A DNA stretch of 64,000 bases, from NCBI GenBank assembly GCA_047285535.1, contig JBJBDC010000001.1, positions 1,792,136 through 1,856,135 of the forward strand, written 5' to 3'. Made by a program: the position numbers. The DNA comes from Synechococcus sp. (GTDB taxonomy: Bacteria > Cyanobacteriota > Cyanobacteriia > PCC-6307 > Cyanobiaceae). Of the stretch, positions 15,001-24,000 are shown piece by piece (position 1 is the stretch's first letter; each line of letters begins with the position of its first letter).

Positions 15001-18000
15001 AGATCTAATAAACCGCTCCAGCCTTGCCAGCTGCCGCCAGGAAGAAGACCTAATGCACGACCATGATCGAGAGCGCTATTGAGGTAATCCGCCTGATCCC
15101 AGGCTGGCAGACCTCCATTGTGAACCCACCAAAGCCTGTCGATGATGGTTGAGAGCAGCCAAATCAAAGTCAGCAGAACCCGAAACTGCCAAGACCTCAT
15201 CAACCGATCTCCAAGCGGCGACGTTCCTCCTGAAGACGTTTGCGCCGCTGCCTGGCTTCTCTCAACATCTCGCGACCATCGTGAAGATATCCATCCACAT
15301 AGCCCATCGTGTATCTCTCTAACTCGCCAATGGCATCGTCCACCTCCGACAGACAGTGATAGAGACTCAGCCCGAATCCTTTTGCAGAGGAAGGCGTGGA
15401 GATGGATTGGAAGAGATCTTTCACCTTGTCCATCTTGCGGCGACTCTGCTCTAAGTAATGACAGAACTCTTCCATCAGGGCGTCGTCATAAGGGTCAGCT
15501 GAAAGCTGACGCAACTGGGATGCAAAGGGATTGATCACCTGACCAAGCAAACGATCAACGGGTGTGTACACCTTCTGCAGCCAGGTTGCCAAGGCCTCAT
15601 CCTCGGCAGCTGCATGTCCAGAAGCCCGACGGGCAGCCTGGCTGGCCCGAGCATTTCTGGCTCCACGGCGGCGGGCCTCCTCCTTCTCACCTGCCATTGG
15701 AGATGCTTGTCGGTCAAAAGCACGCCTGCGATCCCGATCACCCAGCAGTTCCCAAGCTGCATTCAAAGCGAGAATTCGTTGCGCATCACCACCGGCATCA
15801 GGATGATGTTGTTTCACGAGCTGGCGATACGCCGCCTTGATTTCAGTCGTGGTGGCGCTGCGGCTCACTCCGAGGACACCATAGGGATCGCCGCCACTGG
15901 CCTCAAACTGGGAAGAGCGGCTCAAAGCTGACCATCCCGGCGCGCCGGTGGGGCCGCCGAAGCACTAAACATTGGAGTGGAGAGGTAACGCTCCCCAAAG
16001 CTGGCAAGAATCACAACAATCCGTTTTCCAGCCATCTCAGGCCTCTGGCCAAGACGAATGGCAGCAGCGACAACAGCTCCACTACTCACGCCGGAGAGCA
16101 AGCCTTCCTCCCGAGCCAAACGGCGCCCAACTTCCATCGCTTCTTGATCACTGACAGGAAGAATTTCATCAATCAAGCTCCTGTCCAAGACCGGAGGAAC
16201 AAAACCAGCCCCTATACCCTGAATCCGATGGGGGCCTGGAGCACCACCTGCCAAGACCGGGCTCGCCTCCGGTTCGACAGCAACCACTTTCAACTCAGGA
16301 TTTCGCTGCTTGAGAACCCTGGCACAACCTGTAATGGTGCCCCCCGTTCCGACCCCAGAAACGAGTGCATCAATCTCACCATCGGTATCGCTCCAGATCT
16401 CTTCAGCAGTCGTAGCGGCATGAACCGCCGGATTGGCTGGATTATCAAACTGCTGAAGGAGATAGGCCTCTGGAATTTCAGAAACGAGCTCTCTGGCCAG
16501 ATCCAACGCCCCCTGCATCCCTGCATTCCCCGGCGTGAGTTGCAGCTCAGCACCGTAGGCTCGAAGCATGGCGCGTCGCTCGGTACTCATGGTGTCCGGC
16601 ATGGTGAGGATCAAGCGGTAGCCCCGAGCTGCAGCCACCATGGCCAGAGCGATTCCAGTGTTTCCGCTTGTGGGCTCAACCAGCACTGTGCAATCAGGAG
16701 AAATGGTGCCGGCTTCTTCAGCAGCCTGAACCATCGACCCTGCAATCCGATCCTTCACTGAGGCCGTGGGATTGAAACTTTCCAGTTTTGCCACCAACTC
16801 GGCCAGACAACCACTGCGTTTGGGGAGCTGATTGAGCCGCACCAGTGGAGTACGACCCACTAAAGCAGTGATATCAGGTGCGATTGACATCCTTTTATCC
16901 AATCAGATGAAGTCCAAACAGAAAAGGTCCAACCTGGAATTACAACAGAAAGAGAACATCATCAAAACCAGGATAATGGGCGACTAATTCAATTTAACCC
17001 CTCAAAAAAAGCTCCCGCTTGCCGAAGCAAGACAGGAGCAATGATGCATCCAAAGAAAAAAAGATCCCTCAAAAGAGAGATCAATGTTCAGAGGATCAGA
17101 ACTTGAAGGTGGTCTTCAGGAGTCCACCGAAGTTGTTGAACTGGACGTTACGGTCACCTCTACGGTTTCCACCGAAAGCGTTGGTCGTACCGTTGGTCAG
17201 ATCGCCGTAAGGGCGGCTGAGGTAGTAGATCGCAGGAGTTACAGAAATGTTGTCTGTAACTTGGAACTGATACCACCACTCCCAGGCGTAGTTGCCGTCA
17301 GCTACGAAATCAGACAAGGAGTCTTTGAAGTCGTTGCGATAGGAGACATCGGTCACGAAGGTGGGCTGACCAACAGCCATGCCCAAGGTGTTGCCCTTCA
17401 TGAAGGCGTCAGCCCACTGAAGGCCCACGTACCAGGACTGAGTTGTAGCAGAACGGAAGAGGAAAGTATCGTCGCCATCGGTGACGCTGTTGTAACCCCA
17501 ACCAGCACTCACGCTAGGAACCCAACCAGCTTCTTCTGGGGTCCACCACGCACTCAGACCAACCGAGGATGAATTGCCGTTGTTGATGAAGGCAGCAGAC
17601 AGAGGGGTGCCGTTAAGCTCTCCGACTGATGTGGCGTTTTTGGAACTGTAGTTGTAAGCGGCAGCCAAACCCCAGTTTTCTGGTGCATAAGCAATCTGAA
17701 CAGTGCCGATGGAACCAGCACAATCAGTCGCGATACCACCAGTGCCATCGCCACAGCTATCGCGGAAGAACAGATCAACATCATTTCTACCTGGGGTAGA
17801 GAATGAACCGTTGGTGCTCACATAGTTAGCACTGATGCTGAAAGCATCAGACTGCCAAGACAAACCGGCACCTGCACCTAAACCAAGGTTGTAGGTCGCA
17901 GGAGAACCGGCGTAGGTGAAGAAGTCAAGAACAGTGTCCGCAGGATATGCACTGGGCCATACAGCCAGCATGTCGTCCTGACGAACCAAGCCACCCACAG

Positions 18001-21000: not shown

Positions 21001-24000
21001 CAGTGGCGGTGTAGTCAGATACACCGTTGATGTTGAGCTCAGTGGCGTTCGCAGCCATAGGGGCCAGAAGGCCAAGAGCTGCTGGAGCCACCAGCAGTTT
21101 GTGGAACAGTTTCATTTTCGGTCCTCACACCAAAAATTTGAGGTATCGAGACGCAAAGCGTCAACAAAAAAATATTTAGCTTGCCAGACAAATAGTCTTT
21201 GCCTGTGACAGAAAAGGCCGTGGGACGTATCCGATAAAACAAAATATGCCAAAAAACGTTCAGCTAGCCACCAAGATTCTCAGAATATGTATCACATAAA
21301 ACAAAATATATACGCGAGCATGGAATCGAACAAAAAGCATCAAAAAAGTATCACTTACTACTTAATTCAAACTACGTTCATTGGAAGTCGTGACTCCACG
21401 ACCAGGTTGACCATCAATTATTGGTAAGACATCTGCCCCAAGGCCTTTGCGGATGCAAGCACCACTCTCCAACCCACACCAGGCTCGAGAGAAGTCTTTT
21501 GCAAAGGGCTTAAAACCAAGCAGGCAAGCGCTGGTTGCAGCGCTGATCTTCGCAGGCCTAGCACTCCTGCTTCAGGCCTGGAGATCCCATGTGCTCCTTG
21601 CCAGTTACGACCAAGGCATCTTCCAACAAGTGCTGTGGAACAGCCTGAGGGGCCATCCATTTGAGAGCACTCTCTCGTCTCAGCTCTCAACCAACGTGAT
21701 CCATAGCGGAGAACCACCGGCCTTGGGCTATGCACGCCTAGGCCAACACTTCACCCCTTCCCTGCTGATCTGGGCACCTTTGCTCGGGTTGATCGGTGGC
21801 GCTGCTCTTCCGATCGTGCAAGTGATGCTGATGACCTGCGCAGGTTTGTTGCTTCATTCGCTGGCCCGCCAGTTGGTTCCGATCAGAACGGCGAATTGGA
21901 TCACCTACGGGTTTTACGGGGGGAACGCGCTGATTGGGCCCACATTGGGCAATTTCACCGATCTATGCCAGCTTCCCCTCCTGGTATTTGCGTTGATGTT
22001 TGGCCTTCAGAAACGAGTGAGCTGGTTGATCATCAGCGCTGCTCTCCTCATACCACTCATTCGCGAAGACACCGGGATCATGTTGGTTGCCATTGGGCTG
22101 TGGTTGCTCCTTCGAGAGCGCCAACGATGGCCCATGGCAATTGCATTAATCACCTGGGGGGCTGGGTGGATGGTGCTAGTGACCAATGCATTGATGCCGC
22201 TGTTCTCTGACGACAACAGCAAGCGATTCATGGTGGAAAACTTTGGCCAATATCTCAAAGCTGATCCCAGTGAAGGAGCCAGCAGCCTGTCCATGCTGCG
22301 GCAGGCTTTAAGCCAGCCACTCACTCTTCTCAGGGAACTCATCACCCCGCCAGGCCAAACCCTTTTGTATCTGCTGGGTCACGGACTGCCGTTTCTGATG
22401 GTGCCGCTGATCAGCATCGATGCATGGATCCTTGCGGGTCCATCACTCCTTGGCTTGTTTCTGGCTCAGGGCAGCAATGACCCACTCTCCATCACGATTC
22501 GCTACACGCTTCTCGTGGTTCCAGGCTTCAGCCTTGGGGCTCTGCTGTGGTGGAGCCATCGCCGCCAGTCCATTCCCGGACCTCGCACACGTCTGGCCTG
22601 GGGTATCGCCATCAGCCTGTCTCTCTTACTCACCGTGAGTAGCAATCCCCATCGCAGCTTGTCTTGGATCGTGCCGGACAGCATCAGGCCGATGGTTTTT
22701 AGCAATCCCATTCAGCAATGGGAGCACGGACAAAAGGCCCGACAAGCGCTGAACGTGATCCCTAAAGAGGCTTCAGTCAGTGCCAATACGCCCCTCATCC
22801 CCTTACTCGCTCGACGTGAGGTTGCGGTCCGCTATCCCGAATCTCTGCATTACCTCGACCGAAACAAAAACAAACTCTCGGTGGATTGGATCGCCGTCGA
22901 TCTCGACTGGTTAGAGCGCTACAGCGTGGCGTTCCGAAGCGACTGGCGTGAACTGAAACGCATCAAAGAAGACTTGCCAGGGCAAATGAACACTTACCAG
23001 GTGCAATCAATCGATGACGGTATCGCCGTGTTGCAACGAGGTGGTTCAAATAAACCAGATTTGGAACAGCAATTGCGTGAACGTCTGGCCACTCCGCTTC
23101 CACCTGACCCAAGACAACAATCCGCCAAAAGTCCCTGAAACGATGCCCCCGACCAGAGACTGGCCGGGGGCTCTCGCCGGGTCCGCTCTGGCGCGGAACC
23201 GAGTGATCAGTCAGAAGATGAAGCCGTCAGCCGGCGTTCTCCGCGATCAGCAGACCCTGGGTCAAACAACTGGAACTCATGGACACCTCCTCCTGGATGG
23301 ATAGATGAACGCCGGTGATGCATTCGGCCTCATTTGTGAACCCGAAGGTTGAGGATGAGACCACATCACTGCGAACAGGTCCTTTGCAAGATAACGGACG
23401 CTTGGGGCTTACGGCATGGCAATTGCCGTTTTTGCTTTGGTTCCTCACCCTGCTGATATGGCTCCCTTGGCTAGGCAACGTCCCACTACGCGATTGGGAT
23501 GAGGCTCTAGTAGCGGGAGTGGCTCGATCCACTACAACACAACCCGCATGGGAGTGGCTCCTGGCCATCAAGAACAGTGAGGCGATTTACCTCAACAAAC
23601 CGCCAGGCCTGCACTGGCTCATCGGTTCCTCCATCAAGCGATTTGGAGAAGAGGAATGGGCTGTTCGCCTCATTCCAACCCTGCTGTCCAGCCTGTCCGT
23701 ACCGCTCATCGTCTTGCTAAGACGTCAACTCAGGAATGGTCCTGGAAGCGAGCGCTCCGCGCTTTGTTCTGGCTTGATCCTGATGACTCTCTTACCAATG
23801 GCTCGCCATGGCCGATTGGCAATGCTGGACGGCACCCTGGTGAGCTGCAGTTTGCTGTTAATCATTGGCTGGCTCAGCAGCAAACGCACCCCTTGGCATG
23901 GACTCCTCGCCGGACTAGGGGGCAGCGGCATTTTGCTCCTCAAACCACCTGCCCTGCTTGGTTACCTGGCCATGATCGGGATTATCACCCTTTTAGACAG

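Follow-up and report, generated by a model that had tools for sequence, protein, structure and literature searches.

Segment-limited concerted evolution, very probably by gene conversion, of the 5' module of dispersed SLH-OprB porin genes in Synechococcus and its relatives

In Helicobacter pylori, the genes babA/babB, homA/homB and sabA/sabB lie at dispersed loci, and one of their segments is homogeneous among the paralogues of a strain, the others having separate genealogies (PMC3960876). With reference to Pride and Blaser (2002), the same article attributes the homogenisation to intragenomic gene conversion that depends on RecA. According to PMC6053082, in whose main text the word "porin" does not occur, repeated conversion has kept paralogues from the same phylum as the genome studied here clustered by species for long periods. 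As to the proteins themselves, porin-like genes of the same two-domain SLH-OprB family are described as multi-copy in Synechocystis and Anabaena (available parts of PMC8707739 and PMC9705863). According to PMC10628300, OmpM1 of Veillonella parvula (PDB 8bym) is trimeric and binds the cell wall by a stalk made of a triple coiled coil, and one genome contains four paralogues. The introduction of that article gives a pyruvylated secondary cell-wall polymer, not polyaminated peptidoglycan, as the ligand in cyanobacteria, and the term "heterotrimer" is absent from its main text.

Here, we describe nine paralogous porin genes in a Synechococcus sp. genome of 3,025,339 bp (98 N; called G000 in the comparisons). 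An earlier note had placed them at contig positions 452164-453870, 820558-822270, 842451-844109, 870372-871958, 950736-952514, 1312974-1314704, 1467568-1469277, 1809231-1811042 and 1811514-1813250, and all nine were confirmed as intact open reading frames of 528-603 amino acids, seven on the minus and two on the plus strand. Whereas Pfam had previously been run on one member, a single N-terminal SLH domain (PF00395) and a C-terminal OprB-type beta-barrel (PF04966) now score above the curated cut-offs in 9/9 paralogues, and the last residue, as read from the sequences, is phenylalanine in each of them. Among the start codons called earlier, that of gene 820558 is probably misplaced and adds 33 codons; the position homologous to the other starts is occupied by a TTG, and a GTG precedes it by four codons.

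Two of the genes form a tandem pair in the window, by which we mean the whole 64,000-nucleotide stretch of DNA that was analysed (contig positions 1,792,136 to 1,856,135; its features are given in window positions), and the other seven are dispersed. The pair is present as claimed, though the strand had to be corrected to minus for both genes. One is an intact open reading frame for a porin of 578 amino acids (19379..21115; Pfam SLH at residues 48-91, OprB at 107-565) that ends, as read from the sequence, in ...TTFRF, and the other, likewise intact, encodes 603 amino acids (17096..18907; SLH 48-91, OprB 107-586). By blastn, the two are 97.25% identical in their first 509 nt and 78.6% identical when the complete genes are compared. 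Just past the stop codon of the 603-aa gene there is a terminator-like hairpin followed by a T run (17063..17082, minus strand), which comes from a consensus scan in which the count of such sites was not above shuffle expectation.

A blastn search of the whole genome with the first 520 nt of the 578-aa gene matched exactly nine places, with 93.6-100% identity over 400-520 nt, and hence revealed no tenth or silent copy of the module anywhere in the 3,025,339 bp; tblastn returned the same nine and one weak 57-aa match, which is unrelated. The shared tract, which encodes the signal peptide, the SLH domain and the coiled coil, begins ~20 nt ahead of the start codon and ends at about nt 430-500, and past it the identity drops to about 50-65%. 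The upstream limit of ~20 nt is seen in 6/9 copies, so that non-coding DNA is included, and in one gene pair the upstream identity reaches 123 nt at 99%. In the codon alignment, mean pairwise identity is 0.969-0.989 over columns 280-579 and 0.33-0.70 in 60-column windows beyond column 640. The abruptness of this switch, which had been noted before, is borne out by a maximum-chi-square breakpoint in 36/36 pairs, all within the 69 columns from 588 to 656, and for each pair 0 of 500 site shuffles gave a value as high as the one observed. The 3' tract ends are staggered, and the upstream extents vary from pair to pair. The homogenised part makes up only about 28% of the gene, the remainder being anciently diverged. 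That the module spans the signal peptide holds for most copies but not for gene 950736, whose diverged signal peptide and 21-codon insertion mean that its homogenised tract begins at about nt 94 of the reference.

In the 578-aa gene, the module covers 20646..21135 on the minus strand, that is, 20 nt of 5' UTR, in which a GAGG Shine-Dalgarno-like motif is found, and gene nt 1-470 (delimited by an alignment with flanks, breakpoints and blastn). The corresponding module of the 603-aa gene lies at 18438..18927 on the same strand (20 nt of 5' UTR and nt 1-470; alignment and breakpoints), and between the two genes the tested SLH and coiled-coil part has 0 mismatches until the breakpoint at alignment column 633. 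Codons 1-24 of the 578-aa gene (21044..21115, minus strand) encode a predicted Sec signal peptide, MKLFHKLLVAPAALGLLAPMAANA then TE, in which the sequence shows a hydrophobic core and then A-N-A; this segment is less homogenised than the remaining module (pS 0.27). The SLH domain (residues 48-91; 20843..20974, minus strand; PF00395, E 1.7e-10) is predicted from sequence to bind the cell-wall polymer, just as the barrel is predicted to conduct solutes. It is followed by the coiled-coil stalk (about residues 101-140; 20696..20815, minus strand), which has a 3-4 hydrophobic spacing and aligns to the coiled coil of 8bym.

For the comparison with relatives, 32 genes from 7 genomes of the same genus and 71 genes from 17 genomes of the family were used. 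The genomes were hand-picked as complete or nearly so, with several query matches each; 3-9 porin genes were analysed per genome, as copy number varies, and the full-length porins L056 and L061 and the divergent porin L012 are missing from the trees because the anchor motif missed them. In the genus, the module tree requires 6 genome-label changes, which is the minimum possible and was reached by 0/200 shuffles, whereas the barrel tree requires 21 (shuffle mean 20.7) and displays well-supported orthologue clades. AU tests on the module data reject 5/5 orthologue groupings (p from 9e-14 to 3e-4). The family set gives the same picture, with 16 changes, again the minimum possible, in the module tree (shuffle mean 56.8), and a near-random 53 in the barrel tree (shuffle mean 56.9), which groups by orthologue. 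The nearest module neighbour lies in the gene's own genome for 67/71 genes and in another genome for 4/71. The modules of G000 lie at a nucleotide distance of 0.023 from one another (maximum 0.05) and at 0.08 or more from those of the other six genomes in the genus set; across all 17 genomes, the nearest module from outside G000 is at 0.069. Homogenisation is weaker in G005 and G008, where the within-genome means of 0.087 and 0.059 overlap the smallest between-genome distances (0.063-0.072). Furthermore, lineage-specific amino-acid replacements in the family set are common to all paralogues of a genome. Module-only copies without a barrel, which occur in two relatives, are at 0.003-0.063 from their own genome's module and at 0.057 from each other; they match their own genome's module more closely than each other and are homogenised too.

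The earlier note had tied the pattern to the nine genes of G000, where it is indeed present, but this was too narrow, since it holds in 17/17 family genomes examined, which are kin and for this reason not 17 independent trials. Its proposal of gene conversion confined to the 5' module is supported by silent sites, codon use, the distant-genome control, trees and AU tests, and we are highly confident that the nine-gene pattern, in G000 and in the sampled family genomes, represents segment-limited concerted evolution by gene conversion. The nine genes would be ancient paralogues of a cyanobacterial SLH-OprB (OmpM-like) porin, whose beta-barrels would have diverged earlier than the species split in the family, and recurrent non-reciprocal homologous recombination among the dispersed copies would keep the front ends (ribosome-binding region, signal peptide, SLH domain and coiled-coil stalk) near-identical within each genome. 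With pN at about 0.003, the stalk is under very strong purifying selection, which may leave the copies alike enough to recombine, and the process would feed itself, because every conversion restores identity. Tracts would end at the divergent barrel because heteroduplex cannot extend into DNA differing at 40-50% of sites. By recurrent conversion, the stalk would thus evolve as one genome-wide allele, such that lineage-specific changes, amino-acid ones too, reach all copies, while each barrel and promoter would retain its own identity. The data show the pattern, its limits and its distribution among relatives, whereas both RecA-type conversion as the mechanism and the reason for the maintained homogeneity are what we infer from it.

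It is conceivable, if on the unlikely side, that homogeneity is actively selected and that conversion is only the vehicle, be it for a shared stalk in mixed trimers or for one common cell-wall ligand. Such selection competes with the neutral, self-reinforcing account of the uniformity and not with conversion as the mechanism. In its favour, the module resembles, at the level of sequence, the stalk of an OmpM-type trimeric outer-membrane tether: residues 44-140 match PDB 8bym/8bys/8bz2 at E 1e-13, the region matched in the solved OmpM1 trimer being its SLH domain and coiled coil. Modelled in three copies, the module scored 0.83, as against 0.19 for the best of three controls, though this score may reflect memorisation or likeness only, because a similar complex has already been solved. 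The 0.83 mark is reached by 20/30 proteins solved as one-chain pairs and by 1/23 solved as single chains, a calibration from which our model departs in its three copies; a custom alignment was used for it. Its runs agree in at least 98% of contacts with a pLDDT of at least 88, and coiled-coil residues form the interface, which also includes some of the positions that vary from lineage to lineage while all copies of a genome agree (e.g., segment positions 51, 64 and 75). However, co-expression of the paralogues and mixed trimers remain hypothetical here, homotrimers alone need no uniformity between paralogues, and neutral conversion between highly conserved segments gives the same pattern. Moreover, the barrel-less copies are homogenised as well. 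It is more doubtful still that the paralogues of these picocyanobacteria-like genomes co-assemble as mixed trimers through a shared triple coiled coil, with conversion co-evolving the porin set with the cell wall at a locus that also shows GC-biased conversion. If this is the case, any change in the stalk must reach every copy.

The alternative named in the earlier note, protein-level purifying selection together with codon-usage constraint and without exchange between copies, is very improbable and fails as the main cause. It does draw on the fact that hardly any variation exists in the stalk protein across the family, with amino-acid distances of 0-7% within the genus. It also draws on the module pS between orthologues (0.31-0.50), which is below that of the barrel (0.54-0.84), such that some extra silent-site constraint or bias adds to the module similarity, as well as on the unusually high module GC3, which implies some codon or base bias. 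However, silent sites are homogenised only within genomes (module pS 0.017-0.25, as against the range between orthologues), and the module trees sort by genome at the minimum number of label changes. Among the nine G000 genes, pS and pN are 0.090 and 0.003 in the module and 0.765 and 0.341 in the barrel, where 27/36 pairs are beyond correction. Invariant amino-acid columns have a single codon in all nine genes in 85/106 cases in the module and in 2/75 in the barrel. Sites with the same residue have the same codon in 3640/3900 cases in the module, but in just 2583/6348 (41%) in the barrel, which belongs to the same genes and is equally expressed. The distant cyanobacteria G016, G018 and G020 conserve the module as protein, the loosest conservation being that of G018 (pN up to 0.30), but the silent sites of the module are saturated in them (pS 0.50-0.91); in G017, one tandem pair is homogenised. 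Finally, the identity continues into non-coding DNA. Selection alone is thereby demonstrated to be inadequate.

There is likewise very little probability that the genes were duplicated recently and separately in each genome, with very fast divergence of the barrels under diversifying selection (e.g., phage pressure) and 5' ends that are merely young. Porin barrels lie exposed at the cell surface and often serve as phage receptors, and the differing copy number among the 17 genomes would fit such a history. However, the barrel silent sites are saturated between paralogues in 27/36 pairs, which fast protein evolution would not bring about, the barrels fall into well-supported orthologue clades across genomes, and an AU test rejects the nine G000 barrels as a single clade (p 5e-4). 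A collapse of near-identical 500-nt repeats to one consensus during assembly or polishing is exceedingly improbable, since, even though repeats of such length are hard for short reads and the genome has 98 N, the copies hold their own variants at 9 informative sites arranged in mosaics, the tract boundaries are staggered, and the pattern recurs in 16 further genomes with independent assemblies, of which 13 are single contigs.

Segment-limited gene conversion is also supported by these informative module sites, of which 11/36 site pairs show all four gametes. In a GENECONV-style run-length test, 12/36 gene pairs have a run of shared polymorphisms unmatched in 2000 shuffles; only these 12 pairs reached 0/2000, in a module that has few polymorphic sites left. 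Recurrent mutation could explain a few of the mosaic variant patterns.

With respect to base composition, GC3 is higher in the module than in the barrel in 17/17 family genomes, which again are related and no independent cases; the difference averages 0.146, and at four-fold sites 0.22. The four-fold GC of G000 is 0.777 in the module and 0.367 in the barrel, and the module GC3 is within the top 3% of that genome's 106-codon windows, whereas in distant genomes without conversion the module-minus-barrel GC difference is -0.09 to +0.03. The raised third-position GC of the module hints at a GC bias of the conversion. If true, this would provide a clean natural experiment within a gene on GC-biased conversion in a bacterium, in which the four-fold GC of the converted and the unconverted half of one transcript is up to 0.41 apart.

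Taken together, gene conversion can apparently keep one domain, a tether from the outer membrane to the wall, uniform over a dispersed family of 3-9 genes in 17/17 sampled genomes, while pore domains and promoters diversify freely, which amounts to modular evolution without domain shuffling. In practical terms, whole-gene porin trees or orthologue clusters will be misled by the 5' part, and short-read mapping, expression counts and assemblies will be ambiguous over about 490 nt per copy. As near-identical repeats, the modules may also serve as substrates for rearrangement. Intragenomic and GC-biased conversion in bacteria could be measured at this locus, which is a compact system, and it raises the testable question whether mixed trimers form among tether porins.

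In the context of known systems, the porins described here share with the OmpM/SlpA-type tether porins of diderm Terrabacteria the signal peptide, the one SLH domain, the coiled coil and the beta-barrel, but the barrel is of the OprB type (PF04966) and without sequence match to that of OmpM1. They differ from their counterparts in the distant cyanobacteria G016, G018 and G020, where the module is kept only as protein. In the system of PMC6053082, as far as its available sections go, whole genes are near-identical, whereas only about 28% of the gene is converted in the porins. What they have in common with H. pylori are dispersed paralogous outer-membrane protein genes with concerted evolution limited to a segment. 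There, however, it is a 3' segment in two or three copies of a host-associated pathogen, linked to adhesin switching and antigenic variation, and no switching or silent cassettes were seen by blastn in the G000 genome. In the present case, the segment is the 5' tether module, the genes are general porins, the organism is a free-living phototroph, 3-9 copies were analysed in each genome, and the pattern is found in 17/17 sampled genomes of the family.

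Two porin genes stand in tandem on the minus strand of the window, one of 603 aa (window 17096-18907) and one of 578 aa (window 19379-21115), both intact ORFs in which Pfam places an SLH domain at residues 48-91 and OprB from residue 107 to near the end. They belong to a set of nine paralogues, named here by their start coordinates in the genome under study (G000; a single contig of 3,025,339 bp, 50.6% GC, 98 N), of which two lie on the plus strand and the other seven on the minus strand. The earlier note had listed nine such genes and had scanned one of them against Pfam; all nine are intact ORFs of 528-603 aa, and both SLH and OprB exceed the Pfam cut-offs in every one. 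When the 520 5'-most nt of the 578-aa gene were searched against G000 by blastn, nine places matched with 93.6-100% identity over 400-520 nt, and tblastn returned the same nine full-length genes with 51.6-100% amino-acid identity, plus one weak match of 57 aa. This tenth match (genome 1647726-1647896) lies inside an unrelated 211-aa membrane-protein ORF and was rejected. The blastn search of G000 gave no silent donor cassettes of the kind found in antigenic-variation systems, but exactly nine copies, all of them full-length genes.

Mean pairwise nucleotide identity among the nine genes is 0.969-0.989 in codon-alignment columns 280-579 and 0.33-0.70 in 60-column windows past column 640. The abruptness of this switch, which had been claimed before, was borne out by a maximum-chi-square analysis that placed the breakpoint of each of the 36 pairs within columns 588-656 of the alignment, the observed value being reached in none of 500 shuffles per pair. 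The breakpoint, the identity profile and the nine copies together mean that the observation stands.

To map the start of the shared tract, all nine copies were aligned together with the 300 nt that precede them. In six of them the tract begins approximately 20 nt ahead of the start codon, within a region that has a GAGG motif, and in 820558, 870372 and 1467568 the bases around the start deviate and the start is TTG or GTG. For 820558 (genome 820558-822270), the porin ORF itself stands, but not the start assigned to it earlier, an ATG that precedes the homologous start by 33 codons; the tract suggests TTG at that homologous position, or GTG four codons earlier as in 870372. Paralogues 452164 and 1312974 have 123 nt upstream of the start in common at 99% identity (genome 453871-453993 and 1314705-1314827), which argues that one conversion tract or duplication brought along the 5' UTR and possibly the promoter. 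The two window genes have about 41 nt of upstream sequence in common. Farther upstream the sequences are unrelated, and every gene thus retains its own promoter region. At the other side, the tract stops at different points within about 60 nt around residues ATQFSTTTKLKG, at the junction of coiled coil and barrel, and reaches furthest in the four copies with the most similar barrels. In 950736 (genome 950736-952514), the signal peptide has diverged and there is a 21-codon insertion repeating a VSDY.ATGE motif; here, the homogenised tract begins downstream of both.

Directly upstream of the window genes (21116-21175 and 18908-18967, minus strand), the 20 nt before the start codon that they have in common can fold as a hairpin whose loop contains GAGG and whose base contains the AUG. 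Furthermore, a small palindrome (GACGC, 3-5 nt, GCGTC) is found about 27-45 nt upstream in both window genes and in 820558, its stem being kept while the loop varies between copies. Fold z-scores of the upstream region of the two window genes are -2.3 and -2.4, and the hairpin or palindrome could act in stabilising the 5' end of the mRNA or as a site for a regulator. A promoter scan found no sigma-70-like site, and terminator-like sites in the same scan did not exceed the number expected from shuffles. The only match in an Rfam scan of window 16000-22500, to His_leader, scored 30.4 bits against a gathering score of 49 bits and was taken as chance. Long antisense ORFs lie over both modules (window 18458-18967, plus strand, 169 aa; 20579-21208, plus strand, 209 aa); they resemble each other because the modules do, and nothing was seen that marks them as genes. 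The porin pair has a PLP-dependent cysteine-synthase-like gene and a DnaJ-domain gene as neighbours, and is flanked by large polytopic membrane proteins (window 13125-15203, minus strand; 21447-23138 and 23315-24937, plus strand), of which one is without a Pfam match (692 aa), one is a DUF2079 protein and one is a PMT_2-type glycosyltransferase-like protein. The three membrane proteins and the porin pair may form a cell-envelope neighbourhood.

A protein search gave porin matches in 20 of 21 genomes. From six complete or nearly complete genomes of the same genus we took 23 porin genes, giving 32 genes from seven genomes with G000, and the SLH and coiled-coil stretch of 106 codons aligns without gaps in all of them. 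Module nucleotide distances have means of 0.008-0.087 within genomes (0.023 in G000, maximum 0.05) and of 0.084-0.141 between genomes, and between G000 and its six relatives they never fall below 0.08. The module tree requires six changes of genome label, which is the minimum possible (shuffle mean 20.9; none of 200 shuffles as low), whereas the barrel protein tree requires 21 against a shuffle mean of 20.7 and contains starred orthologue clades, for example 820558 with locus L003 of genome G009 and L018 of G011. On module data, AU tests rejected all five orthologue groups of the barrel tree that were compared (p 9e-14 to 3e-4; a sixth group, whose rows are identical, was left out), and on barrel data the nine G000 genes as one clade were rejected (p 5e-4). 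Silent-site difference (pS) in the module is 0.017-0.25 between paralogues within a genome as compared to 0.31-0.50 between orthologues, and in the barrel this order is reversed or equal.

The earlier note had left room for strong purifying selection combined with codon constraint as the source of the uniformity, and the silent sites speak against this. In G000, the SLH and coiled-coil part has a pS of 0.090 (range 0-0.186) and an amino-acid-changing difference (pN) of 0.003, while the barrel has a pS of 0.765, with 27 of 36 pairs beyond Jukes-Cantor correction, and a pN of 0.341. Where all nine genes have the same degenerate amino acid, a single codon is used in 85 of 106 module columns, but only in 2 of 75 barrel columns, and residues that are identical between two genes have the identical codon at 3640 of 3900 module sites versus 2583 of 6348 barrel sites. 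Since module and barrel are on the same transcript, expression-linked codon bias cannot account for this contrast. How purifying selection alone appears can be seen in three more distant cyanobacteria (G016, four genes; G018, three; G020, seven), where the module protein is kept (pN mostly 0.03-0.10 in G016 and in most G020 pairs, up to 0.30 in G018), but its silent sites are saturated (pS 0.50-0.91). There is one exception among the distant genomes, the tandem porin pair at locus L029 of G017, whose module pS is 0.119 against a barrel pS of 0.59, which argues for local conversion between adjacent genes also outside the family.

Used as a DNA query, the 496-nt module has matches in 51 of 61 genomes of the Cyanobiaceae, from 29 of 33 genera; the smallest genomes of the family (1.6-1.9 Mb) mostly give no match or a weak one. 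Ten single-contig genomes with several matches were added to the same-genus set, which brought it to 17 genomes and 71 genes. Here, the module tree again has the minimum possible number of label changes, 16 (shuffle mean 56.8; none of 200 as low), compared to 53 in the barrel tree (shuffle mean 56.9), and in 67 of the 71 genes the nearest nucleotide neighbour of the module is in the same genome, though these counts, coming from hand-chosen and related genomes, speak for consistency rather than independent replication. Amino-acid replacements specific to a lineage are common to every paralogue of the genome in question. Six fetched loci contributed no gene, one (L012) in the same-genus set and five in the family set. 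L012 has no ORF with the sought motifs, and the protein search places a divergent porin there; L056 and L061 are full-length porins that the anchor motif missed and that are absent from the trees. L039 of G064 nearly duplicates the L038 porin of the neighbouring genome but changes frame after residue 283, and is either a broken recent duplicate or a sequencing error. Two loci, L042 of G062 and L049 of G034, hold ORFs of 204 and 182 aa that consist of signal peptide, SLH domain and coiled coil, and tblastn detected no remnant of a barrel there in any frame. Their modules are closer to those of their own genomes (distance 0.003-0.063) than to each other (0.057), and they may be proteins made of the stalk alone, or remnants of a deletion that have been preserved by conversion.

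Thus, the 5' module very probably evolves in concert through gene conversion, as had been proposed: its tree follows genomes while that of the barrel follows orthologues, its silent sites are homogenised, and the breakpoint recurs in 36 of 36 pairs. We infer that recombination machinery acts on the module. Recurrent non-reciprocal homologous recombination would take place among the dispersed copies, confined to the part where purifying selection maintains enough similarity for pairing, and its tracts would end where the divergence of the barrel (40-50% of sites) begins. All four gametes are seen in 11 of 36 pairs of informative module sites, which together with the staggered tract ends and the pair-specific upstream extents argues for several separate events. 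A GENECONV-like run-length test on polymorphic sites only gave 12 of 36 pairs at 0 of 2000 shuffles; this test is weak because homogenisation removes the polymorphic sites that it needs, and we therefore relied on the breakpoint test instead.

Third-position GC (GC3) is higher in the module than in the barrel in all 17 family genomes, by an average of 0.146, or 0.22 at four-fold sites. The largest contrast is that of G000, whose four-fold GC is 0.777 in the module and 0.367 in the barrel, and whose module GC3 of 0.725 ranks among the highest 3% of 106-codon windows from its long ORFs (mean 0.520). In the three distant genomes without conversion, the differences are -0.09 to +0.03. GC-biased gene conversion has been proposed for bacteria (PMC4450053), and the raised module GC3 fits with it, while codon selection may be the source of the same signal. 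The bias may also account for why the module has a lower silent difference between species than the barrel.

With respect to the function of the tract, residues 44-140 give a match at E 1e-13 to the SLH domain and coiled coil of PDB entries 8bym, 8bys and 8bz2. OmpM1 of Veillonella parvula is described as a trimeric porin in which a triple coiled coil connects the SLH domain with the barrel and which anchors the outer membrane to the cell wall (PMC10628300). The stalk sequence, as read here, has a 3-4 hydrophobic spacing. A three-copy model of a 114-residue segment, built from our own 23-row alignment, had a score of 0.83 where the best of three controls had 0.19, though a like complex has been solved and the pass may reflect likeness only. 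Of the proteins solved as same-chain pairs, 20 of 30 attained the mark of 0.83, as did 1 of 23 single-chain ones, in a calibration with two copies, whereas the stalk job had three. Three model runs agreed in at least 98% of contacts, with a pLDDT of at least 88. Structure match, spacing and three-copy model together identify the homogenised tract as a predicted tether stalk with its export signal and ribosome-binding region. The coiled coil of the family porins is 13 residues shorter than in G017, G018 and G020, and 7 shorter than in G016 (alignment A1, columns 69-81), so that, going by the alignment, the periplasmic stalk should be shorter in the family. Uniformity may be kept through neutral feedback, a common cell-wall ligand or mixed trimers.

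A comparable situation is described for the outer-membrane protein paralogues babA/babB and homA/homB of H. pylori, whose 3' segments are alike within strains through segment-limited concerted evolution (PMC3960876). A prokaryote-wide survey of long-lasting concerted evolution gives psbA and psbD for cyanobacteria, and the word 'porin' is absent from its main text, supplements aside (PMC6053082). For Synechococcus, Prochlorococcus or other cyanobacteria, a literature search, with most subscription journals and supplements outside its reach, found no link of porins to gene conversion or concerted evolution. Segmental concerted evolution as such is thus already known, and the present case stands out by how many dispersed copies it involves, by being confined to a single domain and by its presence in 17 of 17 sampled genomes of the family.
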